This document shows, piece by piece, positions 3,743-64,000 of a DNA stretch of 64,000 nt (position 1 is the stretch's first letter; each line of letters begins with the position of its first letter). The notes below the pieces were generated by a model. That model was given only the letters and a program-made list of their open reading frames with translations, was not told the DNA's origin and did not search any database. Origin of the DNA: Octopus vulgaris. Lineage: Eukaryota. Position numbers and translations under genes: made by a program. Location of the stretch: NCBI GenBank assembly GCA_951406725.2, contig OX597826.1, positions 66,154,001 to 66,218,000 on the forward strand, read 5' to 3'.

Positions 3743-4219
3743 GCCTAGACAGTATGTGATGGTTGTAAATGAGCATCATCATCATGCAAACGAGGTGGTT
3801 CTTTTCCAGTCTAGCCATGGAGAAATATCACATTGCTTGGAAACAGGTGAAGGTTGGCAACAGGAAAGACATCCAGCCGTAGAAAAAGGAAGTCTGCAAG
3901 CATGCTCATGTAATTCCTGTTGAGTTTGTTGTCTCAATGCTATAAGAAAAATAAATAAAACACTCATGTCTACAGCATTCCCCCAAATCACAGGACAGAA
4001 ATAGCAGCCAATCTTCCTCACATTACAACAGATTGCTTTTAAGAAAATGAATACATATTGTTGGTCGATTATAACCGACTCAAAAAGGATGGTCGTGACT
4101 GGAACGTCCTTGATCATAGGGTTGCTCAATTAAGGTTATGGGAGGTTATTAGTCATACATAAATATATTGATTAACGTAAGAGAGAGAATGGGAGGGAGG
4201 AATGCTTATGAATACTTAC

Positions 4220-4310
4220 TTTCATATTCGTTTAATTTGAAGTAAGCATGAGCCCTGTTGGTGAAATATTCACTTTTGGTTTTATTGGCAGCAATTGCTT
4301 TTGTGAAGAG
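4220..4310 (-). CDS. SUGT1: SGT1 homolog, coding exon 3 (LFTKAIAANKTKSEYFTNRAHAYFKLNEYE), TPR motif
   Basis: TTTCAG acceptor, 91 nt, GTAAGT donor (phase 1). Clear TPR pattern KAI...YF.NRA.AY.KL..Y. A TPR starting right at the N-terminus favours SGT1 over PP5/STIP1. Further exons not found in the window. Confidence 0.8.
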
Positions 4311-4799
4311 CTGAAAATATATCAAAAGATAATTACTGTATATGTCAGTGTATAAAGACGTATTGTTAGTTAACAAAGCAAGAGATAGCTTACCTTCAAG
4401 CAAGTTAGCAACGTACCATACAGTTTCTCCTGAGGGGACAAATCTATGCAATGTAAACACCTGTGATGTCGCAACTCATTTCTACAGCTGAGTGAACTGG
4501 AGCAACATGAAATAAAGTATCTTGCTCAAGAACACAACACGTAACTTGGTCCAGGATTCGAACTCACAACCTCACGGTCGTAAGCTCGACGCTCTAACTG
4601 CTGAGCCATGCGCCTTCACTATACACTACACCCTACATTATTAAGCAAATCAACCTTCTCTGAATAAATATATATTCATTCAAAACCACTTGACTTCCAA
4701 CTGACTGTTGGCAGTACCTATCTGCGCACATTCTGCTAAGATAAATCGGATCTGTACCGACGCCAACAAATGGCAACAATTTTTGTGATTGGACAACAT

Positions 4800-45903: not shown

Positions 45904-48121
45904 AATTAGTGTTACCTGTCACATGACAGTTACGGTTGAAGACCTGCTTTTAGCACTGTAGGTGTTATCAGGTATTGGTATATATATATACACATACATA
46001 CTGTGTTGTGTTGTGACCCCCTTCGGTCATGAATGACCATGGGATTGCACCTAGAAAGTTAGCCTTTGAGGCACAAGTCTGGGCAAAGTTGTTTAAAGAA
46101 GACCAGCAGTCGCCCATGCATACCGGCCTCCCCTCTCCACGCCACCGATGTTATCCAAGGGAAAGGCAAAGGCCGATACAGCTTGGCACCAGTGACGTCG
46201 CAGCTCATTTATTAACATGCAAGTGGCTGAGCACTCCACAGACATGTATACCCTTAACATAGTTCTCGGGGAGATTCAGTGTGACACAGAGGGTGACAAG
46301 GCTGGCCCTTTGAAATACAGGTACAACAGAAACAGGAAGAAAGAGTGAGAGAAAGTTGTGGTGAAAGAGTACAGCAGGGTTCACCACCAGCCCATGCCAG
46401 AGCCTCGTAGAGCTTTAGGTGTTTTCGCTCAATAAACAATCACAATGCTCGGTCTGGGAATCGAAACTGCAATCAGGATTTATTATTCTTTGTAAACCTA
46501 GTATTTATTCTATCAGTCTCGTTTACCAAACTGCTACGTTACGGTTATGTAAACAAACCAACATTGGTTGTCAAGTAATGGTGGGTGAGACAAAGACACA
46601 CACACACACATTCATACAACAGGCTTCTTTCAGTTTCCATCTACCAAATCAACTCACAAAGCTTAGGTCAGCCTGAAGTTATAGCAGAAGACACTTGCCC
46701 AAGGTACCACATGGTGGGACTGAACCCAGAAGAGATATATATATGTGGAGCACAATGGCTCAGTGGTTAGGGCAGCGGACTTGCGGTCATAGGATCGCGG
46801 TTTCGATTCTCAGACCAGGTGTTGTGGGTGTTTATTGAGCGAAAACACCTAAAGCTCCACGAGGCTCCAGCAAGGGGTGGTAGCGATCCCTGCTGTACTC
46901 TTTTGCCACAATTTTCTCTCACTCTTTCTTCTGTTGGCCTGCTCGCTTAGCCAGCGGGGTGGCGTCATTTGAAGACTAAAACAATGTAAAGCGCATTGTG
47001 ACCAGCGATGTGTGGCAACATCTGATAGCCTGGTCGGTCACATGATCACGGCGATATATATATATATATATATACAAAAAAGTAACAAATTTTCAAGGTT
47101 TTTTTTTTTCAAATTTTATATGTAAAATATATTTAAACAAAAAAACAAGAACAATAACAATTATACTTTTTCTTCTTCCATCCTTCTTCTCCAATTTCTT
47201 TCAGCAAGTAAAATAAAAGTTTGTTCTGTATATATAAATCTTTCAAGTTAATAGGATCATTGATATCAGCAGAAGTTAAAGTACCACAGACAACAACACA
47301 CCAAAATACAGTCACCTCAGTTGCAGTTCATTTCGGATATATATACCAAAATAATATATTTATATCCTTGAGGTTTAAAAGGGAGGTGGTGGTGGTGGGC
47401 CCTCATTTTTGGCAAGAAATTGGTGTGTGTATGTGTGAGGAGGGGTTGTGTCGTAAGGAATTTCATACAAGAAAAGTTACCCTTTTTTTTTCTTTGCTTT
47501 TCACTGGAAGAATAATTTAAATAAATTTTCGTTTCTTTGGTAAAAGTAGAGAGTTGTGAGAGTGTGTGTGTGGTTTCACACAGACTCTTGGGAGACCAAC
47601 AAAGATCTGAAGAAAGCCCAAATTTGAGTGAAGGGTAAATATTAAGTGTGAGCACATTTGTGTGTGTGTATGTTTGAGCTGCCTTAAGGTTACACATTCA
47701 AGATATCAGTAAAGATATGTGATGAAAGCTTGTTACTCGAGTGAGAGTGAAGTTTAACTGTCTCTCTAAGCTGTGCGATGCTCGCACTTCTTGGGACATC
47801 AATGAGCAAAGAGACACGAGGAAACCCTGACACTTGAGTGAGAGTGAAACCTATCTGTGTTGTTAGCTGTATGATACACACTCTCACTGGGAATGAAAGA
47901 CCTGAGAAAAGTCACATGCTTAAATAAGAGTGAAGCTTAACTATCTGCTTGCACTTACACTCAAAAGATAACAGAGATAACAATTAATATGAGGTAAGCA
48001 TGACATTTGAGTGGGAGTAAACGTCTGCATATATATATATGTTTAATAGTCACACTCTTGGGAAGTTGGTGAGTGTGAGGAGTGGTTTGTGTCCAGAGGT
48101 TTAACAATGATGGTGACAGTC

Positions 48122-48289
48122 TCATGATATATGCGAAGCAGGGGTTGTGGGCGATGGTGACATCTGGGGAAAGGACGAAGTTACACTGGGGTTCTGGTGG
48201 ATAAGTTCTCTGTGGCAGGAATAGCTGTGAGGGCTGATTTGAATTGGAATATGGTGTATCAGTGTTGGGTCCATCACTTGGAACACAAG
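48122..48289 (-). CDS. Chimeric gene, exon 5 (LVFQVMDPTLIHHIPIQISPHSYSCHREL...stop)
   Basis: TTTACAG acceptor. Aligns to VVF.I.D..HYHVPLLLSPYSYSTYRGS, but YRGS is replaced and ~26 aa are added. TGA at 48122. Confidence 0.85.
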   Translation of the reverse strand, partial: LVFQVMDPTLIHHIPIQISPHSYSCHRELIHQNPSVTSSFPQMSPSPTTPASHIS

Positions 48290-49213
48290 CTGTAAAGTAA
48301 AGAAAAACAATTGATTTATTAATTAATAAACAACAATTAATTATGGCAAAACATTTTCTTTAGCCTGATATAAAATCAACTAACAAGATCTATAGTTAAA
48401 GAAGGGTCTCAAGACAAATATAAATGTTGAGGGCTTATTATCAAACCCTAGGTCTGCCTGGATTGAGCTGAACTATAGTTAGAGTCTACGTTACTCCTTA
48501 GGGGCTCATAGGGCCAGTTTTCTGATTTCCCAGGTGTATGTATTCCTTCCTGGAAGGGGATGCCAGTCTGTCATAGGATTACTCATTCTTACCAGCTGAG
48601 TGGACTGGTGCGATGTGAAATGAAGTGTCTTGCTCAAGAACACAATGGATCACCCAGTCTAGGAATTGAAACAACAATCTTACGATCATGAGTCCCAAAC
48701 CCTAACCACTGGGCTATGTGCCCTATGAGCTGAACTATGATAAACAACAATCCAGCCATGTACATCCAATCTTTTATTCAGGTATAGTGTATGCCTATGA
48801 CTACAACAACCAGTATGTCCTCTGTTTAAGATAGTAGTGTGTGCCTTGAGAGAGATTTGGCTATTATTTCTAGCAGGTCTTGCTATCACTTACAAGTTTC
48901 TTGCATTGGCTGGTAATGTTGGGTGGTAGGCCTGACACATTACTCAATTTAACACCTCCACTAAGACTTGCATGACTAGCAGGAAGGATTGAAGGTAAAA
49001 TTAGAATTTGAACTTAAATGTTAGATCAGTGGTTCTTAACCGAAGTCCACTCAACCCTTAGGGATCCATATGGCCTTTGTGGATCCATATAAGATTTTGT
49101 TGTTAAGGTTTATGTGCAATAAATTAATTAAACTTCTACAATACAGAAAACAATTTTTATACAATTCTTAACAAAAATATTATCAGGAATTATAATTCTA
49201 AAAATATATTCTT

Positions 49214-49551
49214 CTGTCTGAGGAGAGTCATTCTCTTTTAGTGCCTTATTCTATAACACGCTCATTGGTTTGATTTCCACTCATTTATTTATTTATTCTT
49301 AAAATTTCTGTTGCATCTTGCATCTTTTCAATAGTCGTTGACTCTGTCCATTATCCAAGCTGCGTTCTTTTTGTTTGTTTGTGCGCATATGTGTGGGTGT
49401 GTGTGTGTGTATGTGTGAATCAATGACTACTGAAAAGGTTGCAAGACGCAATGGAAATTTTAGGAAAAATAAATAAGTAAATGAATGGAAATTGAACTCG
49501 TGAGTGTATTAAATAACAAGGCACTAAAAAAGAATGACTCTCCCCCAGACA
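49214..49551. mobile_element. Palindromic MITE (~130-bp arms)
   Basis: 49214-49345 is inverted at 49417-49551. Confidence 0.7.
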
Positions 49552-50735
49552 CAATAAAATATGCTTCAACACACAAATTCACATCAAGAATCTTGCAAAC
49601 CAAATCCCAAAACGATCTAAAAATATAATTATAAAAGATGATGGTAATATTACTACAATTCTAAAAATATAATTATAAATCATCATCATCATCATCATCA
49701 TTTAGTGTCCGTTTTCCATGCTAGCATGGGTTGGACGGTTCAACTGGGGTCTGTGAAGCCGGAAGGCTGCATCAGGCCCAGTCAGATCTGGCAGTGTTTC
49801 TACGGCTGGATGCCCTTCCTAACGCCAACCACTCCGTGAGTGTAGTGGGTGCTTTTTACGTGCCACCCGCACAGGTGCCAGACGGAGCTGGCAAACGGCC
49901 ACGAACGGATGGTGCTTAATATATAATATAATTCTAAAAAAATGGTGCTTGGTGACAGGAAGAGCATTCGACTGCAGAAAATCTGCATCAACAAATTCTG
50001 TCCAAGAAGTGGACGATAAAGCAGTGATGATGATGATGATTTCTGACACTACACCATTGTATTGTAATGTTTAATATACTCTGTTTCACTACTTATGGTT
50101 CATCATATGCATGCACACATGGACATCTATGCCCAAAGAATGGAGACCCTAAGGCAGCGAGCTGGCAGAAACGTTAGCACGCCGGGTGAAATGATTAGCG
50201 GTATTTCGTCTGCGTTACGTTGTGAGTTCGAATTCCGCCGAGGTTGACTTTGCCTTTCATCCTTTCGGGGTCGATAAATTAAGTACCGGTTACGCACTGG
50301 GGTCGATGTAATCGACTTAATACCTATGTCTGTCCTTGTTTGTCCCCTCAGTGTTTAGCTCCTTGTGAGTAATAAAGAAATAAGTATTTCATCTGTCTTT
50401 ATGTTCTGAGTTCAAATTCTGCCAAGGTCGACTTTGCCTTTCATCCTTTTCATCATCATCATCATCATCGTTTAGCGTCCGTTTTCCATGCTAGCATGGG
50501 TTGGACGGTTCTACTGGGGTCTGAGAAGCCAGAAGGCTTCATCAGGCCCAGTCAAATCTGGCAGTGTTTCTACGGCTGGATGCCCTTCCTAACGCCAACC
50601 ACTCCGTGGGTTGATAAATTAAGTAGCAGTTATGCACTGGGGTCATTGTAATCGACTTAATCCCTTTGTCCTTGTTTGTCCCCTCTATGTTTAGCCCCTT
50701 GTGGGCAATAAAGAAATAAGAATGGAGACCCTTAC

Positions 50736-50871
50736 CTCAATGTAGGGATAAAAAGCTGACTGGTCTGTGATTTTGAAATAAGACTCTGTATCAAACAGTA
50801 GCTTATACACTGTTGTCTTAACGATTTTTTGTCCAGCAAGGAATGCAACATGACCATCAATGCTACTGGCA
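50736..50871 (-). CDS. Chimeric gene, exon 4 (SASSIDGHV...YKLLFDTESYF...FYPYIE)
   Basis: TTACAG acceptor, 136 nt, GTAAGG donor (phase 0). HIUase YKL.FDT..YF....FYPY.E motif. Confidence 0.88.
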
Positions 50872-52389
50872 CTGTAATTAAAGAAATACAAACATGTCAA
50901 AAAACAACAAGAACAATCACTACCACACTGATCCTTCCTTCTAAAACATGATAAGCCATGTGGTTCCTCAACAAGAAATCTGTTCTGCTTTGGCCCTCTT
51001 CTTTCATACTTCAATCCAGCACTGGATTAACCTTTAAGCAAAATAATCATGTGCTTAGGGAATCAAGGAAAGGAGGGCACCACAGAAATGGTTAATGGTT
51101 TATGGCACAAAAGAAATCACTTTAACCCTTTTGTTACTGTATTTATTTTGAGCTGCTTTGTGTTTCTTTCAATTACTTTAAATATAACAAAGAATTCAGT
51201 AAAATAACTTAGTTGTCATTAAACTAGTGTTAGGAACATAAATTGTGACTAAGGTTTGGTGGAAGATTTTCATTCAAAACTTATAAAAACAAGACATTTG
51301 TACTCAGAGCCAGAGCCGGTTTCAGCCGGGTTGGTAACAAAAACTTGCTAAAATAATATTCCAAGTGGTTTATATGATTGGAAATATAATTTTGAAGTGT
51401 TCATGGTGTCATAGTGAGGATCCGATCAAAGACTTTACAATTAAAAGAAAATTAGAAAACTTGTTAAATATATATAAAGTGGAAGAATACAAAAACGTTA
51501 TATTCAATCTGTTAGTTTTCATTTTGAAAAATAAAAATATATTTTATGGTTTATTATTGTTTATATTCTGAATTACATATATATGGTGGGCACCAAAATC
51601 TTTTAACTGCTCAGGATCTCTGTGGATCTTGATCTGACCCACCTTGAAACACTCCTTTCCTAGTATAAAGCCACCTCTCTTGGGGACCATAGTATTGGAA
51701 GCTGCCTTGTGACCCCTCTAGTGCTTGTGGTATGAAAAACACACCTAATACACACCAAAATGGCTGGTGTTAGGAAGGGGATCCAGGCATAGAAACCATG
51801 CCATAGTAGAAAGTGTAACACACGCAGTTCTTGGACCCATCAGATTCTGTCAGTGTCCAACCCATGCCAGCATAGAACAAGGACGTTAAAAGATTATGAT
51901 GATGATGTAACTTATTGATTTTAAGTGATATTTAAGGAGAGTCTTGTTAGTGAGGGAACAGAGTAGAGATAGAGTTGACAGAAACAACTTGTGTTGTATA
52001 ACAGCCATGTGTTTTTTCTTTTATTCAGGCCCCAACTTCATCTTTTTACCTTCTTCACAGAATGAAGGGTAAAGTAGGAAAAAGTTGAAGTGAGGAAGCA
52101 TAGTCTAAACTATCCCCTTGTAGTTTAGACTATGAGCATCATAATCATCATCATATTATCTTAACCATTGCTATATTTTTTTGCCTATTCTTCATACTTG
52201 TGGATTAAGATGGTTGGCATCTCTTACTGACACAAGTACAATGTCTTCTTTGTGAAAGAGAACAATTTTTTTTTAACCACATCAATTCTGAGCAATTAGG
52301 GAAGAACATGAGGTGATGTTTAGTGTTTATCTATCAGTTTATTTGACTTAATTCAATTCAAAAGCACAGTCTAGACATGTATGGACTAG

Positions 52390-52550
52390 CAAAGACCAGT
52401 TCAGACTAAGCCAGACAAATATGAACCAGTCCAGACTAATCTAAACTGGTATGAATCAGTCCAAACTAAACTAAACCAGAATGGACCAGTCCAAACTAAA
52501 CTAGTTTTGAGTAGATCAAACCAGTATGAACCAGTCAAAACTCAAACTAA
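52390..52550. repeat. Degenerate ~30-bp minisatellite (ACCAGTCCAAACTAAA)
   Basis: About 5 units visible. Confidence 0.7.
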
Positions 52551-52653
52551 ACAAAACAATGAGTATTTTTTTTTTACTTAGAATGTTCAACTCTTTTTTT
52601 GTTTTGTTTTTTTTTTTCAGAAACTGCACTTTAGTGTTAAACAAGTTTCTTAC

Positions 52654-52775
52654 CTTTTCTGAAGCAGTTTCCAAGATCGCTTCTCAATCTGAATAAATAA
52701 TAAGACAGGTACACCAGTTGCAGGCAGACCTTTGGAAATATCAAATACATGGCTAGAAATTGGTGAAGTTATTTC
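52654..52775 (-). CDS. Chimeric gene, exon 3: transthyretin/HIU-hydrolase domain start (EITSPISSHVFDISKGLPATGVPV)
   Basis: TTTTGCAG acceptor (phase 0), 122 nt, GTAAGA donor (phase 2). Matches HIUase SP.STHVLD.S.G.PA.G. Confidence 0.85.
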
Positions 52776-55772
52776 CTGCAAAATAATGTTGTTATGTAAA
52801 GGAATTAATGAGAATTGTAATGGGAGAAAAAAAGAAAGGGAGATATATGAAGAACTGAGAGGGAAATGAACAAAAAGAGAGAGAGAGAGAAAAGGGGAGG
52901 AGGAAAGGATGGAGAGAGAGCAGAAAAACAAAGAGAGGGGTGAAAATTGAAGTCTAAAAGATAGAAAAAGAGAATTAAAAATGAAAGAAATGTCATTTAT
53001 ATTTCTTTTACATCCATTTTCCCCAATCTTTTTATCCAATCTGAATTGGTTACAACGGGTATTTTTATAACCATTCTTTGCTGGGATAATTGGATACGAC
53101 AACCTAAAACACATTCGACCATGAAATAGCAGTGGAGCCTGTTTAGGTTTGGTTTGCTATCAAGGTGAAACAGAGTTATCTACCTTGCTCAGGGATATAA
53201 CACAAGCTGTCGTACAGTTTCATATACCTATTTCTTTACTACCCACAAGGGACTAAACACAGAAGGGACAAACAAGGACAGACAAACGGATCAAGTCGAT
53301 TATATCGACCACAGTGCGTAACTGGTACTTAATTTATCGACCCCGAAAGGATGAAAGGCAAAGTCGACCTCGGCGGAATTTGAACTCAGAACGTAGTGGC
53401 AGACGACATACTGCTAAGTATTTCGCCCGGCGTGCTAACGTTTCTACCAGCTCCATCGTCATCGCATCAATATCATAATCATATCCACTTTTCCACGCTT
53501 GCGTGAGCTGGAAGGAATTTGGTGAGGCAGATGCCATTCCTGTTGCCAGCTTCCACTTGTTTCCAAGCAAGATTAAATTTCCCCATGGCCAGACATATTT
53601 TCACAGAAGACTAGACACGAAATAACAGTGACACGAAATAACAGTACAGTTATTGCGCAATGTCAAAACAAGGAAACACACACACACACACGCATACATA
53701 CGACAGGCTTCTTTCAGTTTCCATCTACCAATCCAGTCACAATATATCAACATCGTTTTCACGTCCACTCTTTCATGCTTGCATGGATCGGACAAAATAT
53801 TGTCAAGGTAGATTTCTATGACCAGATTCCCTTCTTGTTACCAATCCTCATCCGTTTCCAAGTAAGATAATATTTCCTCAAGTCCGCGGAGCACAATCAG
53901 CACGAGTGCCAGACATGATTTCATTAAAGGTTACAAAGGAATTACACTACTTGTATCGATATTATGAGAATAATTTCCTCTCTTCTATCCATTTGTTCAC
54001 CCCCTAAATTATCTCTAGGCCTGAATATTTGCAACAAAGTAGATTATATGAATGGCACCCAAGGACCAAGAAGTGGTGTTAAACCAGGGGTTACAGACAG
54101 GAGCGGGCATAACTGTTTACCAGGCTCCTTTGAATGTGTTAACATATAGAGTGCAGGCCCCTCAGACAGTGTCCGATTGACCGACTGCTCAGTCCAGCCC
54201 TGGTTTCAGATGAAATTTACCAGCCGAGAACAAGGAATGTTTCTTATCACAGGCTTCCACAGTTTTTGTCCAGTAAATTTCAACCATGGGGTCTTGCTTT
54301 ACCTATAGTTATTGTAGAAGACAATTACTTACAGTGCCATACAGTGAGATTGAACCTGAAACCATATAGTTCCAAGGCAAACTTCTCAACCACACCTACT
54401 GCCATTACCTCTATTTATCCCCCACTGTTTCCCACCACCCCTGTACCTCTCACTTAATCCCTGGCAATGTGCATCTCTCTTGCATTCTACCTCTGCACAT
54501 TTTGTATCATCTGTACTGCCACTTTTTACCCTCGCCTCCAACTGATATTTGACAGAGCACACCTCTGCCTGTGTTCACTACTCACAACATTCCTCTCTAT
54601 CCCCATTTCTAACCATCTGCCATTCTCCTTTCACACTCACACAAACCTACTTAACTACCCATTCACCCTGTCCAATCCTCTGAATCACTCCTCTTACATT
54701 CGCTCTTCCAGTAACTTCTTTTTCCCAACTAAGGCAACCATGTATCTCCCCTACACCAAGACACCTGATCCTGTCTTTCTATTGTACTTTAACTTCTCAT
54801 CACCTGGCATAAAACCACCTGTTTCAATACAACACCTCCCTCATTTGAAAGGCGGTGTCTTGCAAGTTCCTTAGTGACCTTACTGGTGCCAATGTCACGT
54901 AAAAAGCCTCTACAACTCTCTGTAAAGTGGTTGATTTTAGGAAGGGCATCCAGCCATAGAAACCATGCCGAAGCAGACACTGGAACTTGGCACAGTCCTC
55001 TGGCTCACCAGCTCCTGTCGAACTGTCCAACGTATGCAAGCATAAAAAAGTTATGTGCTGTGGAAGGATTCTGATCCCCCACCCCCAAATAACTAAAAGG
55101 TGGACTGACTCATTGTTATAAAACAAAGAACTGTGTGCAATTAGCAGTTGGTGTTGGTAGCAGTTCATAGTGAGCCTCTGATATAGAGTGTTGAGTCTTG
55201 TGTAATAGTAAGAGTAGTGTGGTGTCTAAATACTTTCTCCCCCCTGCTTCATAAAAAGCACCATTTGAGCGTGGTCATTGCCACTGCCATCAGAGTGGTC
55301 CTGTACTGGTGACACAAAAAAGGCACTATTTGAGCGTGGTTGATGCCAGTGCTGTCTAACTGGCCCCATGCCAGTAGCATGTAAAAAGCACCATTTGAGC
55401 GTGGTTGATGCCAGTGCCACCTGACTGGCCTTGTGCTGGTGGCACATGAAAAAGCATTTACTATACTCTTGGAGTGGTTGGTGTTAGGAAGGGCATCAAA
55501 CTGTAGAAACCTTACCAGATCACATTGGAGCTTGGTGCAGCCTCCTGGCTTGCCAGTCCTCAGTCAAAACGACCAACCCATGCCAGCATGGAATGCGGAC
55601 ATTAAACAATGATGATGATGATGAAAACAAGGATATAAAACTATGTTAAATGGTAATGATGACGACGATGATGATAGTAATGACAACCAGGCCTATCACA
55701 GATCTGCTGATATTAAAAGACCAAAGAAAAGCAAACCGGAAGAGAACCAGAAGCACAAAAATGTTAATATAC

Positions 55773-56214
55773 CATATCTCGTGTCCCTCGTTTCTTTTTC
55801 TTTGTGTGGCCATCATTACAGTTGATGATGTTGTTGTTGTTATTATTGATATTGTTATTATTATTATGAATGTTGTTGTTGTTGTGGTTAACCATGTTGC
55901 TGGTGTTGTGATTAAGTGGAGGGCTGAGTTCTTTTTTGCGTTTGGCTTTCAAGTTGTTAATGTCCCTCGTTGTTAGCTGTTTGCCAGTCACATTGCATAT
56001 ATACTCTCGGATGTTCTTGGTCTTCATTCCAATGTCTATTAGCCGGTATGTCTCCGTGAGGACGTTGGGCGACAGAGACTGCCTGCGGTTCTCAGGGTAC
56101 ATGTGACCCAGCATCTGATGCGAGTGGTTTAAATTGATGGATCGTATCACCATTCTCTGCTTCTCTCGGTCAACTGATGCAGCAATTAGAGCAGGACATC
56201 CAGTTTTATATGTT
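55773..56214 (-). CDS. Chimeric gene, exon 2 (KTYKTGCPA...NLNHSH zinc ligands, helical segment, poly-N, KKKKR)
   Basis: TTTCAG acceptor; AA+A=Lys restores RPNQKTYKTGCPA; 442 nt ending ATG|GTATAT (phase 0). The unspliced alternative stops at 55764. Confidence 0.8.
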
Positions 56215-58083
56215 CTGAAATTCAAAAGGGAAAACAGGTTATTGTTGTTGTGGTTGTTGTTGTTGTGGTGGTGGTGGTGGTGGTGGTGGTGGTGGTGCTG
56301 CTGCTGCTGATGATGATGATTATTATGATTATTATTATTATTATTATTATTAAGGCAGTGAGTTGGCAGAGTTGTTATCATGCTGGACGAAAAGCTCAGT
56401 GGTATTTCACCCATAGCCACATTCCGGGTTCAAATTCTGCTGAGGCTGATATTGCCTTTCATCCTACATGATAAATTAAGTACCAGTGAAACACTGGGGT
56501 CAATGTAATCAACTTGTCCCCTCCCCAAAAATTTCAGGCCTTGTGCCTTTAGCAGAAAGGATTATTAATATTATTATTATTATTATTCAGTAGTCTTTGT
56601 GATTATTGTAAATGAGTATTTCCAATATTCTCTGAAAACCGTCTGGCCATGGGGAAATATTACTTTATTTTGGAAGTAGGTCGGAGTTGACAAGAAGAAG
56701 GGGTATCTAACTATATAAAAATCAATAAACTCTGTTCGACCCATACAAGCAGAGAAAAGAAGGTGTTAAAACGATGACGATTCATATTACACTTGCATGG
56801 AGTGGAGTGTGATGCAGTGGTTGAGAGAGGAAATCTCTTTTATGGTTTATTGTCTGAACTACTTTCGTAACTTGAGAAGCTTTCACTACGATTGTAGCAG
56901 TTGAGAGAGTGAGTTGAATATGGTTCATATGCTGAGGTGGCGTTTTCTTAACAGTATAACACAAACTCCAGATTGGAGACATGCAGTAACAATTAAGGTC
57001 GGGTGGAAACTTCATATATGATAATTGGTTACAGATTTTGGCTCAAGTCCAGCAGTTTCGGGGAGGAGGCTAAGTTGGTTACATCGACTCTAGTACGCAA
57101 CTGGTATTTATTTTATCGACCTCGAAAGGATGAAAGGCAATGTCGACCTCGACGGAATTTTAACTCAGAATGTCCAGGCGGACGAAATGCTGCTAAGCAT
57201 TTTGTCCGACGTGTTGACGATTCCGCCAGCTCGCCGCCTTGTTTACATATGATAATAAAGATCCTTTTTTTTTTTTTTTAAACATTAAGCACAAACTGAA
57301 GACAAGTGTGGTAACAGACCAGGTTTAGTGAAACGAGAGTTCATATAATTAGTGGCCTTTCCTAACATAAAACCCAGGCTAAATAAACATTAGGCGAGGT
57401 AACTGATCTGGACGAAAATGAATGAAAGATTATCAAATATGCCGATCTTTCCAAACATTAACACTAGAATGAAGAGAATGGTGATAACGCAATGTGAAAC
57501 AAATCAAGCCAGAATCAACATACCTAGGATCAAACACATCTAGAACCATTCTGTCGCTCACATTATTTAGACATAGTGTGTACAGGACTACGTTATCGTA
57601 CTTGTCCTTTTTTTAAAAATAATTCCATTTTGCCAATGTTTGCATTTACTATTTGATAACACAGATAACAAATTAGTTTCTTTCAATTTACTGTTTCACT
57701 TCTATATGTATGGTAGCTATCTGTTTACATACCTGCGTATCTATGTACTAATCATAAATAATATCCACCAGCCTTTCCACACATACATATAGCAACATGT
57801 CAAAATGATAATAAATGTATCTGCCTGTCTACATAACTATAGATTACAGATACACACACAACAACAACAACACATAACTATCTACAACATTTGAAAGGCA
57901 TTCGTAGAAAATTTCATCAAAACAAATATCCATTTTTTCAGAAAATTATTAGAAAACAGTGTTGGGTGTGAAGAACACACGTCTGTAATCACATACACAC
58001 ACAGTATTGACAATAAAACCTTATATCGACACTCATTCATCGTTTTAAGGATAAAGTCAACAACGAGTGATTAACGACAGGTA

Positions 58084-58158
<75 letters not shown>

Positions 58159-58590
58159 CAGAGAGACAACAGACAGAAATAGATTGATCGAGAAGAAGAA
58201 AACACCACATGAGATATCTCCCACTAAAAAGAAAAAAAAATCGTGTGTGTTGCAACTACATGGTTCCAGGTTCGATCCCACTGCAGGGTATTTTAGGCAA
58301 GTGTATTCTGTCTGATATAGCCTTGGGTTCACCAACACCATCGAATGAAATTTGCTAAACGGAAACAGCGTCGGAACCCATCGGAGGAACCGATCTTGTT
58401 TTGTATGGAAGTGTGTGTGTGTGTTTATGTTTATGTTTACGCTAGTCTAAAACCGGTGTTGCTTATGTTGTGTCGCTTTATGTTCCGTAACTTAGCAATT
58501 CAACAATAGGGATTGATAGACGAAGTACGGAGGTCGATATGATAATTGAAACCAGTAAAAGAAAAGAATATAAAGAAATGGAGGAAATAC

Positions 58591-59195
58591 TTTTGGTTGG
58601 GTCGTATCCCAGGCACAGTCCGTCGTCTCGAGTAACCAAACTGTTTACAAACATATTTGACGTATTTGTATTTGAACTTCTCGTCTAAAGGTTCAACTTT
58701 GACACATCGGGATCGGTTAGCTTTGGCAATTGTTTGACAGTCATGGATGGTGAACACAGCATTTGTCAGCTTACAGACAGCTGCTATAGCAGAAGACAGG
58801 GCAGAAAAGTCTTCGAACTCGTCCCCAGCATTGAGTAAATCTCGACAGGCTTCGTTTGCCCCAATCTCAATCAGGGCTTTGCTCACAAGTAAATCCTCGC
58901 TGATTTTGTCCGAGCTCTGCTCGTGTTGATGTTGTGGTTGATGGTGGTATTGCTGTTGTTGATGATGATGTTGGTATTGTTGCTGATGCTGCTGCTGTTG
59001 TTGTTGTTGCTCTTGTTCGAGTGTGGTTGTAGTCAGGACAGTGGCCGCCAGAACGTCAGCGGCCGAGGTGGATGACAGTTGCTGTTGTGGTATGACCACC
59101 AGTTCGGTGACTGCTGTTGGAGTTGCAGTCGACTGTTCGGTGGTGAGAAGGCTTACACTCTCAGCCACTACATCTTGCTCACCTGTCGTTGCCAT
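58591..59195 (-). CDS. Chimeric zinc-finger/transthyretin-like gene, exon 1 (T/Q/H-rich N-terminus + first half of a ZSWIM3-N/FAR1-like domain)
   Basis: AAAGATGG start; GDEFEDF..L..AI...KYKYVKYVCKQFG...GIRPNQ; 605 nt; GTATTT donor, phase 2. Confidence 0.85.
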
Positions 59196-59348
59196 CTTTG
59201 CTTGGCCAGGGTCCAGGAAGAGCCCTGGTCAAGGTAATGCTTCCACTGAAGGTGCAAATAAGTGGCCTGGCTGTGAAACTGCTCCAATGATCAACCGGTG
59301 TGGAACAGGGATGAAGAGTTCCTCTTAAAGACATTAGAGAGAGAAAAC

Positions 59349-59400
59349 AAGAGTTATCCCACGTTTACTTCCGGTCCGTTTACAGCGCAACGTAACCGGG
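59349..59400 (-). promoter_or_regulatory. Putative promoter of the chimeric gene (GGGATAACT motif, ETS CCGGAAGT)
   Basis: AGTTATCCC at 59352-59360 and ACTTCCGG at 59367-59374, ~160-180 nt upstream of the ATG. Confidence 0.45.
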
Positions 59401-60719
59401 TCATTTCATCCTCGTTGTTTATTTTCTCCTTTTCTTCGTAAATTATTTTATTATTTGCTTGCAAGTTTTTGTAAATTACTTTTCTTTTTGCTTCTAAATT
59501 GATTTGTTTAAGAATTTTGTTTGTAAATTTTATTTAATCAGTGTGTGTGTGTGTATTATGTTTATAGATGTTGGTTCGAATCGCACGGACGGCCTTCAAT
59601 TTTTTTCTATCCAAAAGGACTTTTGACGCAATATATTTAGACTATTATTTATAGTTTTATGTGATTTGATAGCCACCATTCCCAATGATAATTAAAATAA
59701 ATTACTCATGTAATTAACTAATTAATTCTACTTAACTTGTTTGAAATTAATAAAATTAATTAATCGAAATCAGCATTAAAATTTTTTTTTTAATCAATAA
59801 ATCGAATTCATATCTGTAGGGAGAAAATACCTACGGTGTATAAGTGTATATGAATTTATATTTACGCAAAAGGCTTACCTAGGCTAATAACTTGAATAAC
59901 AAGATGTGTGTGTCGTACTTATTCATGTACTGGTGAAGACTGCTTGGCTGACGAAATCTAAAAAAGACTGAAACACGTCTAGAGTTGTCGCCTTTCTGCT
60001 CAAATCCCCATTTCGTTGCCCATATTCTATACTAGCTGAAATAACTGGAGTTACCTGAGTTAATGACTTACGGAATTAACAGTAACATCACAAAGCTCTT
60101 TATTTAACTTATCTTTTCGAGAAAAAAAAAACACTCGGCGAAAATTTGGACTAAAAACACTTTGTACACCTTTTTCTTTTCCTTTTAAGAATATATTTTT
60201 GTTTCATATATAAATTCCAAATATTTGTTTGTTCAATTCTGTAAAAATTTGTCCTCAAATTCAAATCTTTTGAATCCCTTTTCAGTTTCTGCTTAAACGT
60301 GATCCTTACCCTAACTCAAAATTGTAATCCTATGTGCTCACACGAAACCCTAACATTGAATGCTAACCTTCAGCGGAACGAGAATGAGTGTGATGTGAAA
60401 GATGTGTGTGTGTGTGGAGAGAGGGAGAGAGAGAGAGATGAGAAAAAGAATGAGTTTGGCTTAATCACAATTAAAGTTGTAGGATTAAGTTACCGAACGA
60501 TGGGAAGAAACCTTAATTCTGAACAGCCACAGCACGACAAGAAGGACAAGGAACCAGACAAGTTTTAAGTGGGTATGGAATGACGAGAAGGAGGTTGAAT
60601 TCCTACCCATTACTATATTCATCAATCTCATGAGTCAATCACAACCCAGGAATTGAACTCCCATCCACTTCTATATCCACCATTTAACCAACACTTATAT
60701 CCACTCACTTATCTGTATA

Positions 60720-63620
60720 GCAATTGGAAGTGAAAATTAAGACTCTTAAACCTAACTTTCCTACTGTTTTGTTGCAGGAGCAATACGCTACATGCACTTC
60801 GAATAATATGGACAGTTTTATGGTACAAAGTTTTTGTAGCGCTCCGGCGTTTTTTCACCGTTCTGCCTGATCTTGTGATTCTTTTGGAGGTTGGCGTGGA
60901 GCACTTCTCATGCGTCTGGCCATTATTTTGTGCTTCTGCATTGTTATCAGGAGGAGCATTTGTGATTTCTTTCCTTGAGTCAAGTTGAGTAACATGTTCC
61001 ATGGAGTTTGTAGGGTCTGTTGGATGGTTGTCTGGCAGGAATTTCCATCTAAGTGGTCTGTTTATACTATCTGTCTGTGCCTATGCTAGTATCTCTCAGT
61101 TCCCTTTTGTTTATCCGCAAATCTCCATGTGTTGTTTTCACAATGTAAGACCTCGGTTCTTTACATTGTCTTGCTTTTTCTCCAGGTATTCAACGTTTGT
61201 TGCTTTTTGTCCAAGGACCCGTACAGCTTGTCCTTTGTGCAACGGGGGTATTTCTATCTTTGCGTACTAATCATATGTAGTTTTCATTTCTTCAAGACGT
61301 TTTCTCTGTCTTTGAGTTACATGAGAATAGCTCCAGCATAATGGCACAAGTGTTGTGATCGGTCTGCTCAACAGGATCTCGACGGGTGGCGGCATCTTTG
61401 GGTTTAATGGTGTGGCTCTTAGATTCAAAAATGCATTGTTTATGTCTTCTTTGCTTTGTTCACATTTTTGGATTGTCTTTTTAATTGCCTGTACCTGTCT
61501 CTCTATGAATTCGTTTGATTGGGGTATCTTGATTATGTTGAATTCCCCATTTCTGTGTGAATTGCCGATATGGTTTTCCAGTATATTGAGGACCATTGTC
61601 GCTAAAAATGTCATCATGTCTGACGAAGAGAGAGACAGTCTTTTTGAATTCCTTTGCGACTGCTTTGCTTGTGGTCTGGCTGAGGTGAGTCACAATCGGA
61701 AATTTGGAGAAGTAGTCACAAATAAGCAGATAAGTTTCGCCGTTGATTTCAAATAGATCTGTTCCTAGTCTTTTCCATGGTGTTCTGGGAATGTCATGAG
61801 GTATCAGTGGCTCTCTGTTGTTGGTAGTTGCAAATTCTTGGCATATTTGACAGGATCTGCACATTTCTTCGATGTCTTTGTTGATGTTTGTCCACGAGCG
61901 TGAAGTTTGGTCTTATCTATCCCTTGATGAAAGGCATGGAGATGTACTAGAATGTCATGCTGTAGAGGTATCAACACTTGTGTCCCTTTGAAGATGATTC
62001 CATCTTCTACAGCCAATTCGTCTCAAAATGACCAGTATGTCTTTATACCATCTGGGACTTGTTTGATGTTGTCTGGCCACCCATAGGTGATCGTTTCCAT
62101 CAGTGTAGCCAAAGTAGAATCTCTGCTGGCGAACTCCTGCAGTTGGTAACCTTTGTTGATGGAAAAATCGGTAGATTTCTCCTGCAGTCAATTCAATCCC
62201 ATCCATTCTCCTCAAGCCCAGATCAATGCCTTCATTGTCTTCACGGCTTGGGAGGCGAGAGAGGGTGTCGGCCAATGTCATGTTATGCCCTGGGCGGTAT
62301 TTGATTTTGAAATCATATCCCTGAATTTTCTGGAGCATCCTTCGTAGTCGGGGTGGTGCTCGAAGAAGGGGCTTTTCTGCGATCACCTCCAGGGGTTTGT
62401 GGTCTGTGATGACGTCAAATAGTTGTTTGCAAAGGGATGTGTGGAAACGGGGTGATACCAAATACCACAGCCAGCATTTCATGATCGATGTTTGAGTAGT
62501 TTGACTACTGAGTTTTGTCAAGGGCTTCTGATGCAAATGCCACAGGTTTGCCATCTTCTACGATAGCTGCTCCGTGTCCTTTCAAAGAGCTGTCTACCTC
62601 GAGTCTTATTGGTTTTTATTTTTTTTTTAGTAAAAAAACCCGAGGTTTAATTTCTCTAGAATGGTTCATTTAAGTTTTCCAAAGCAGTGTATGTGATCTT
62701 TAGACATCTCAAATAGTATATTTTTCTTGAGGCGGTCCCTTAATGATTGTGCTTCCATGCTGAAGTTTGGAATGAATGTTGCTAGGTAATTCATTATTCC
62801 CAAGAATGTTTGCAGCTCTTCCTTGTTTTCTGGAACAGGCATGTTTTGAATGTCACAGACTTTTACTGGGTCTGGCCTGGTACCATCTTTGGAATAAATA
62901 TTTCCAAAGAAAGAGATTTCGGGTTGATGAATGTGGCATTTGTCCTAGCTTGAATACCAATCCAGATTCCTTTGCTTTTTCCATGAGTCTTTGTAAATTT
63001 CTGTCATGCTCTTCTTCATCTTGCCATGGACAGCGATGTCATCATTTATTGCAACAACCCCTGGGAGTTCTTCAATGATTTCATCCATTCTAGCTCGAAA
63101 GATATTGTGGAGATACATTTAGACCAAATGACAATTTAGTCCAACAATATCTTCCAAATGGGGTCCTGAAGCTTGTGAGTAGCTGACTTTCTTCATCCAG
63201 ATGAACAGATCGCTGAAAGTGCTAGAACCAGCAAACTGAGGGTTCAAGCTCTTCCACCGTTGGGATTTTGTGGGGGGGCATCTTTTCAATGCTTGATTAA
63301 GTTTTTGTGGGTCGATGCAGATGCGAAGTGATCTATCTTTGTTTTACGGAATATGCCATGCTTGAACACCAATCTGTATATTGTTTCACAGGCTTGATGA
63401 CACCCCTATTTCTTCCATCTTCTGGAGTTCAATCTTGGGCTTATGTTTCAGGTGAACTGAGCATTTCCGAGGTGGTTCAAAGAAGGGTTCCAAACATGCT
63501 TTTATGTATAATTATGCGGGTTCTTTGAAGCTGCCCAGGATGTCGAAAAGATTTCGGTACGTTTCTTTCAAGCCTTCGATTGTTCTGAAATCAGAGTTGA
63601 ATCCGTGACATGATCACAAT
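60720..63620 (-). mobile_element. Decayed Ty3/gypsy pol (RT, RNase H, integrase)
   Basis: Frameshifted motifs: TSFRTPFGRYC, VITDHKPL..APPRL.RML, YRPG..M.LADTLSR, H..HQGI.KT, C..CQ, PWKRLGTDLF, DYFSKFP, SDNGPQY, ERQVQ.IK, RATPL, TRSGR. LTRs not identified. Confidence 0.9.
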
Positions 63621-64000
63621 GTATTGCGATTAATTTCATTGTCTTACATGCTGGTAATCCGATTAATTTCGATTCGATATATTTATCTTGTTTTACCGCT
63701 GTCACCATATCGTGTCATACAAGCACTCCAATTATGCGATGCAGAGTGGTTGGTTGTCTACTTGACTGCTGCTCCCTTAACCACCGAGCTGACTCTCTTT
63801 TATCCGCGCCAGCGTATTTAACAATGTGAAACTAAGTTCATTTAGTTTCATATCATTACAAGTCCAATGCCAACTTGCTAAAGCGGTTATGAAAGGCTAT
63901 CAAAATCAAACACCCAGAAAAACTGATGAATGGGGGTCTTGTTTCATTAGGACAGTGGTTTTTCAACCAGGGTTCCGCCAGTACAGTCCAGGGGTTCCGC

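Follow-up and report, generated by a model that had tools for sequence, protein, structure and literature searches.

What has become of the 5-hydroxyisourate (HIU) hydrolase (HIUase)-like domain encoded in a 64,000-nucleotide stretch of the Octopus vulgaris genome (assembly GCA_951406725.2, contig OX597826.1, positions 66,154,001 to 66,218,000; hereafter the window, in the coordinates of which positions are given)? The descent of transthyretin (TTR) from HIUase is the textbook case of an enzyme that became a non-enzyme, and an earlier sequence-only reading of 48122 to 52775 proposed a transthyretin-like neofunctionalization here. The three exons of that interval are real, but they do not make up a gene by themselves: the fusion gene to which they belong begins at 59195 and has five exons, of which these are the last three, at its 3′ end; on the minus strand, the joined frame encodes a 490-residue product with the HIUase-like domain at its C-terminus. 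We favor, with moderate confidence, the explanation that transposase capture has produced a nuclear regulator, with a probably inactive HIUase domain that would act as a tetrameric hub carrying four DNA-binding arms.

Six-frame translation of the window recovered the HVFD, DGH, HHIP, and HREL motifs on the minus strand. The features that the sequence-only reading had described could thus be located: both histidines of HVFD and HHIP are retained (exons 3 and 5), alignment to the zebrafish HIUase places DGH at DGR and HREL at YRGS (exons 4 and 5), and exactly 26 additional Ser/Pro-rich residues precede the TGA codon. Exons 3, 4, and 5 each match the Pfam Transthyretin family (PF00576), in order, and their GT-AG ends, their continuous frame, and spliced contigs agree with its description of a coding region devoid of stops and frameshifts with intact splice sites. 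The start codon of exon 1 is that of the database model P0005, and the exon 1 region matches Pfam PF21599 (E 1.4e-6). By inspection, the N-terminus bears no evident signal peptide, and the KKKKR cluster of exon 2 resembles a nuclear signal.

Splicing was traced in contigs of four runs from four studies (X1, X3, X8, and X10; taken as RNA by guess) aligned to positions 46500-60500. The exon 1 part 58923-58591 is spliced to exon 2 in contigs of all four runs. Record 19 of X8 contains, in order, 56069-55896, a stretch of 124 unlisted letters (as long as what remains of exon 2, with one ambiguous base added), and exons 3, 4, and 5. Record 12 of X10 joins exons 1-2-3, record 13 of X3 joins exons 3-4-5, and X1 provides exons 1-2 only; the X10 contigs furnish the last junction of the HIUase exons together with the upstream junctions. 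An X11 contig corresponds exactly to exon 4, with loose ends matching exons 3 and 5. The exon-bridging spliced contigs come from three studies; unlike these, three large runs are continuous through the intron borders. The O. vulgaris database models P0004 and P0005 match exons 1-3 and then end early. P0004 starts in a neighboring retroelement, a decayed Gypsy-like long terminal repeat element with reverse transcriptase, RNase H, and integrase-like stretches recognized by eye (~60800-64000, minus strand, just upstream of the gene), which that model wrongly includes.

Table 1. Exons of the fusion gene and the protein segments that they encode (window coordinates).
Feature	Positions	Strand	Content
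Coding exon 1	58591..59195	-	ATG; low-complexity N-terminus rich in Thr/Gln; initial two thirds of ZSWIM3_N (FAR1/Aft-type WRKY-GCM1), including first zinc-ligand Cys; GT donor
Exon 2	55773..56214	-	Remaining ZSWIM3_N (Cys...His-x-His); three-helix, helix-turn-helix (HTH)-like region; Asn-rich linker; basic cluster KKKKR
Exon 3	52654..52775	-	HIUase-like domain, strands A-C; His12 and Ile16 kept, Leu14 to Phe; HVFD
Exon 4	50736..50871	-	HIUase-like domain; Asp50 kept, Arg52 to His (DGH)
Exon 5, coding part	48122..48289	-	His103 and Pro105 kept (HHIP); Leu107 to Gln; YRGS to HREL (SCHREL); poorly conserved 26-residue Ser/Pro tail; TGA stop
Exon 5, 3′ untranslated part (at least this far)	47332..48121	-	X10 record 9 spans 48289-47332; X3 record 13 spans 48289-47534

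The complete two-domain protein is present in Octopus bimaculoides (P0012), Argonauta hians (P0003), and the cuttlefish Acanthosepion pharaonis (P0002, with P0009 a near-identical full-length copy); no squid-labeled or Nautilus ortholog was retrieved, a negative that does not show them to lack one. Identity is concentrated in the structured parts. Between the window protein and P0009, 102/115 residues are identical in ZSWIM3_N, 56/64 in the helical HTH region, and 96/112 in the HIUase-like domain, whereas the flanks retain 18-27% (N-terminus 18/98, linker 12/54, tail 7/26). The HIUase-like domain is identical in all 112 residues to that of O. bimaculoides, which scores 85 bits on PF00576, and in 94/112 to that of Argonauta; across octopods and cuttlefish it is 84-86% identical, as compared to 68-69% between the active HIUases of oyster and pearl oyster. 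The octopod-decapod split is ~270 million years old. The contigs differ from the window in 23 rows, ten of them in coding exons; eight of these are silent and two missense, both missense changes lie in the tail, and differences within the domains are silent only. In a second read alignment, cross-species changes were limited to two silent ones in exon 4, too few for a dN/dS estimate. Because the domain is so well kept between octopus and cuttlefish relative to its flanks, it is not decaying.

What has been preserved is the fold, with an altered active site. Scores on PF00576 (79-88 bits), a Foldseek comparison to HIUases (E 7e-13, root mean square deviation (rmsd) 1.6-1.7 Å), and a fold comparison (VIA) of the C-terminal domain to HIUases (Z 18) establish the presence of the transthyretin/HIUase fold. 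Ten active-site residues, in zebrafish numbering, were taken from PMC13751858 and compared in an alignment of the octopus domain to the zebrafish HIUase. Five are kept (His12, Asp50, His103, Pro105, and Arg117) and five are changed (R52H, L107Q, Y116H, G118E, and S119L), the Leu107 to Gln change having been overlooked in the sequence-only reading. The cuttlefish likewise keeps five of ten and Argonauta three; in the latter, which also has a longer Asn-rich linker, Asp50 and Pro105 are changed as well, so that its domain is as far from that of Octopus as the cuttlefish one. The rebuilt residues (G-H at Arg52, QISPHSYSCHREL; CHREL in place of TYRGS) do not vary among the cephalopod sequences compared, which argues that the site was rebuilt a single time and has stayed fixed since. 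Selection in favor of the fold rather than the enzyme, as the sequence-only reading had it, survives insofar as the data support a domain maintained despite its altered catalytic signature; the transthyretin parallel attached to that claim does not. It is likely, judging from the active-site changes, that the domain no longer functions as an HIUase, and the ‘uraH’/HIUase labels that these proteins carry probably misstate their function. None of six candidates proved to be a shorter homolog of the domain.

The front end scores 48 bits on PF21599 (ZSWIM3_N) against a cut-off of 27.8, with a weak FAR1 match, and alignment demonstrates that the zinc ligands C, C, and H-x-H of an insert-type WRKY-GCM1 domain are intact; the Atlas grouping assigns it to the FAR1/ZSWIM3_N/AFT clusters (0.93). 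In the available part of PMC1702500, insert-type WRKY-GCM1 domains are described as the N-terminus of MULE (Mutator-like element) transposases that have repeatedly been turned into transcription factors. A search of 1.84 billion representatives was made with P0011, and 41 of the 150 listed matches were scanned against Pfam; in most of the front-end relatives among them, a MULE or ZSWIM RNaseH transposase domain is present. Since its nearest relatives are MULE transposases, the front end is probably of transposon origin. No MULE or ZSWIM RNaseH domain is found in the three cephalopod orthologs, and exon 2 is single-copy, with one match, at its own locus, among 14 candidates in the genome; the lack of a DDE RNaseH domain together with the single copy rules out an active MULE transposon. 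The genome has two further ZSWIM3_N exons, both distant, on a different contig (L154 and L155, on C3).

An AlphaFold model built from a 45-row alignment (mean pLDDT 80, pTM 0.53) divides the protein into three separate folded parts, with the helices at 211-263 modeled at pLDDT ~95. For residues 82-200, the sole listed fold match is a DNA complex of yeast Aft2 (Z 7.4, rmsd 2.5, 74 aligned), and residues 209-264 match an HTH (Z 7.5), both being middling scores; a fold predicted from the single sequence was poor (pLDDT 42) and retrieved middling HTH matches only. Taken together with the basic cluster, these features suggest that the fusion protein would be located in the nucleus and bind DNA.

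Is there a second HIUase gene from which this one could have been released? The separate YRGS-containing urah paralog, for which the sequence-only reading had proposed a search, was not found in the genome. Among eight candidates, TIGR02962 returned the three exons of this gene and one repeat-rich chance match, and both matches of an oyster HIUase query fall at this locus. A Y[ST]TYRGS-stop pattern retrieved 15 genomic matches, all of them RGW-stop or RGR-stop, and the three that were translated are not in an HIUase context. Two weak extra paralog matches were dismissed as chance upon translation, as was that fourth TIGR02962 match, and two prokaryotic loci were false matches. This gene is the only HIUase-like locus found in the genome by these exon-wise searches.

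The surrounding pathway appears to be missing as well. Genome searches for uricase returned no match with PF01014 and one stop-containing match with TIGR03383 (E 0.87); 2-oxo-4-hydroxy-4-carboxy-5-ureidoimidazoline (OHCU) decarboxylase yielded no candidates, and xanthine dehydrogenase (XDH)/aldehyde oxidase domains no matches. Allantoinase was not found, the four exons matched being read as other enzymes, presumably CAD dihydroorotase and dihydropyrimidinase. The same kind of search recovered all five exons of a control, purine nucleoside phosphorylase (PNP). Two adjacent allantoicase-like exons remain (L024/L025, C14:41060332-41061382), despite the failure to find the enzymes upstream. This octopus may have lost oxidative purine catabolism, perhaps wholly.

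A mechanism can be proposed along these lines. Loss of the oxidative purine pathway would have removed the need for the enzyme, and the single HIUase gene could then have been reused without duplication, joined to a DNA-binding front end from a MULE transposase. The HIUase domain would supply the tetramer, from which four putative DNA-binding arms would extend on flexible linkers, and the His/Cys-rich pocket might add ligand or metal binding. Oligomerization was queried with four copies of residues 338-462 of P0012, in a prediction for which the tool did not use the supplied alignment. The tetramer scored 0.91 against 0.01 for the best control, with a contact agreement between runs of at least 94% and a pLDDT of at least 87. 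The mark applied was reached by 21/30 solved pairs, 0/23 single chains, and 1/7 eukaryotic proteins lacking a solved relative. The HIUase-like domain is thus predicted to stay tetrameric; as solved HIUase and TTR tetramers exist, the score may reflect memory of them. In other animals, this front end has different partners, namely nucleoplasmin (paddlefish), BTB (crayfish), or KRAB domains (P0016, P0150, P0025, P0077). BTB and nucleoplasmin domains oligomerize, and by analogy their union with the same kind of front end suggests a parallel for the HIUase hub. The four fusions are in themselves instances of repeated capture of the MULE domain.

Several points weigh against this explanation. The runs were guessed to be RNA, with none on record as such, and their contigs carry no expression level. 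Some database entries for the gene stop short of the HIUase exons (P0004, P0005, and P0013), although they have the appearance of unspliced forms or of models cut short. An intact parent transposon of the front end was not found in the genome searches. The missing enzymes were sought exon by exon in a single genome, which makes their absence likely, short of proof, and a PF00576 genome search at default stringency matched nothing, missing even this locus, for which reason it is not used as evidence on paralogs. Lastly, a tetramer role alone leaves invariant pocket residues unexplained (His387, Gln442, Cys450, and His451; P0012 numbering), which favors an added binding role.

That added role leads to the alternative that survives best, and which would supplement rather than replace the captured-transposase regulator: a one-component sensor, in which DNA binding would be switched when the rebuilt His/Cys-rich pocket takes up a metal (Zn, Cu) or a metabolite resembling a purine. 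We regard it as a possibility on the unlikely side. The three cephalopod rows all have His348, His387, His438, His446, Cys450, and His451 (numbered as in P0012), while 66 bacterial rows have Arg, an aromatic residue, Thr, and Tyr at four of the six positions, the Thr and Tyr columns being fixed, and the aromatic column limited, by the search pattern. Going by its title, PDB entry 2g2n is an Escherichia coli HIUase with bound Zn; the fold match Aft2 is an iron-responsive regulator; and copepod fusions of a Brinker domain to HIUase, described below, keep a complete active site. Set against this, an octopus without XDH and uricase would make hardly any urate or HIU, Argonauta is changed at Asp50 and Pro105, and a fusion in the annelid Capitella lacks His12 and has Gln at Arg52.

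Less probable still, and in our estimate improbable, is a domain that has stayed enzymatic, as a weak HIUase or by hydrolyzing another substrate, while tethered to the DNA-binding region. The five retained residues and the intact fold would agree with this, as would the cuttlefish protein's 87.5 bits against the NCBIfam HIUase cut-off of 87.45. Against it stand the five substitutions and the extended C-terminus, Arg52 being present in 66/66 bacterial rows, and the failure to find uricase, the supplier of the substrate, in the genome. In the zebrafish HIUase, loss of Tyr116 alone removes ~99% of activity, according to the available text of PMC13751858.

The transthyretin-like carrier with an opened hormone channel, which is the interpretation of the sequence-only reading, is very unlikely. 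The resemblance is genuine as far as it goes: like TTR, the domain is derived from HIUase, has kept the fold, has lost the catalytic signature including YRGS, and continues past it in a longer chain. TTR arose by duplication, and Y116T and I16A together suffice to abolish catalysis and admit thyroxine (available part of PMC13751858, citing Cendron 2011). In all cephalopod rows, positions 116 and 16 are His, again a ring side chain, and Ile, rather than the TTR-type Thr and Ala, and Leu14 is replaced by Phe in the octopus domain; the predicted tetramer places residue 451 (the Tyr116 position) in contact with residue 350 (the Leu14 position) of another copy. The octopus domain keeps five of the ten site residues, TTR one. 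Its best solved sequence matches are HIUases (E 1e-19 to 1e-15), ahead of extant TTRs (3e-10 and weaker). Approximately 350 residues, including the DNA-binding region and the basic cluster, precede the domain, and the N-terminus is not evidently that of a secreted chain. As neither Y116T nor I16A is present, no duplicate was found, and the domain follows a DNA-binding region, the transthyretin parallel is not supported. A decaying pseudogene, one of the outcomes that the sequence-only reading had named as its own refutation, or a gene-model artefact is largely refuted and barely credible, since spliced contigs from several studies, silent-only differences within the domains, and conservation exceeding that of active bivalve HIUases speak against it, even though two database models of the locus end after exon 3 and database HIUase fusions can be artefacts, cadherin-HIUase and integrase-HIUase rows being probably mis-joined gene models.

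The proposed regulator can be placed among known systems. Genes in which a host domain is fused to a transposase (‘transposase capture’) include KRAB-transposase fusions and SETMAR. In these, as here, a transposase DNA-binding part is spliced to a host domain; at this locus, however, the transposon part stands in front, and its partner is not a repressor or chromatin domain but a degenerate enzyme of purine catabolism. With HIUases (Urah; PF00576, TIGR02962), the protein shares the fold (rmsd ~1.6 Å), the five kept site residues, and, as far as the prediction holds, the tetramer; it differs in the five substitutions, the 26-residue tail, and the fusion behind a DNA-binding region, and the pathway enzymes up- and downstream were not found in the octopus genome. 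With MULE-derived WRKY-GCM1 factors (yeast Aft1(Rcs1)/Aft2, plant FAR1/FHY3, and ZSWIM3), as described in the accessible portions of PMC1702500 and PMC10027918, it shares the insert-type C..C..HxH domain with an N-terminal helix, the transposase helical region that follows, and single-copy, conserved status, but has a metabolic-enzyme domain in place of the transposase catalytic and SWIM domains. The Urah-Urad fusions that serve plants, diatoms, and bacteria as allantoin synthases (PMC13751858, available part) likewise use a C-terminal HIUase as a tetrameric core bearing an N-terminal domain; both of their domains are active enzymes of one pathway, whereas the cephalopod partner is a DNA-binding region.

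Literature searches, with subscription journals and bioRxiv supplements outside their scope, returned no description of the cephalopod fusion or of a loss of uricolysis in cephalopods. The words ‘mollus’, ‘cephalopod’, and ‘octopus’ do not occur in the available text of the review PMC13751858. The accessible portion of PMC10027918, on transposon-derived transcription factors with Octopus included, does not mention transthyretin or either accession, and its five supplements lack the accessions and family names; it names one Octopus FHY3-type gene.

Related architectures occur in other animals, where the fusions are known from protein records alone, read support having been sought for the cephalopod gene only. 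The annelid Capitella teleta protein ELU04385.1 (P0014) has the same architecture, with ZSWIM3_N, the helical region, and an HIUase domain devoid of His12, Arg52 (replaced by Gln), and YRGS. When 46 of 145 HIUase rows were selected for a tree, it placed the fusions of cephalopods and Capitella together at 65/52, though with a warning of long branches; they are not joined in a quick tree of all 145 rows, nor in a 27-row tree of the DNA-binding domain, which does not reject the join (approximately unbiased test, p-AU 0.258). A common origin of the two is thus neither shown nor rejected by the trees. In sawfly and wasp proteins of the Hymenoptera (Athalia, three Polistes species, Chelonus, and Copidosoma), a C-terminal HIUase, in several cases with an altered YRGS, follows an N-terminal CxxC...H...H finger that is visible in the sequence and matches Pfam weakly; these fusions form one group in the quick tree. 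Across P0040, P0087, P0095, P0148, P0060, and P0133, the named ones being hymenopteran, YRGS is progressively changed, and sometimes DGR. Calanoid copepod transcriptome proteins (P0032, P0165, and P0167; a cluster of 28) join a Brinker DNA-binding domain to an intact HIUase, and in Pinctada a single gene model joins HTH_psq to HIUase. In the JGI records P0067/P0178, a degenerate HIUase (no His12, DGE, YKSS) follows an N-terminal region that is charged and that Pfam assigns to no family with confidence.

A recurring architecture of DNA-binding domain plus HIUase in annelids, Hymenoptera, and copepods is to be noted in this light. As a tentative and rather doubtful generalization, the HIUase fold may have been recruited several times independently into transcription factors, as the half that oligomerizes and senses a ligand, the other half being a DNA-binding domain of transposon type, namely a MULE finger in coleoids and Capitella, a zinc finger in Hymenoptera, and Brinker in copepods; the cephalopod protein would then be an enzyme-derived metabolite or metal sensor outliving the urate pathway. 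Irrespective of that generalization, the locus points to a different route from the scaffold that gave rise to TTR, with no duplicate found, the pathway apparently lost, and a transposase DNA-binding region captured. On the generalization, animals would show another evolutionary fate of the HIUase fold, a second one not described before; the locus itself would widen transposase capture to include metabolic pseudoenzymes as partners. The gene itself is a highly conserved, unstudied candidate regulator in octopus and cuttlefish. Elsewhere in the window, an exon of another gene lies at 4209-4475 on the minus strand, with a weak tetratricopeptide repeat match (PF13431, E 5e-4).

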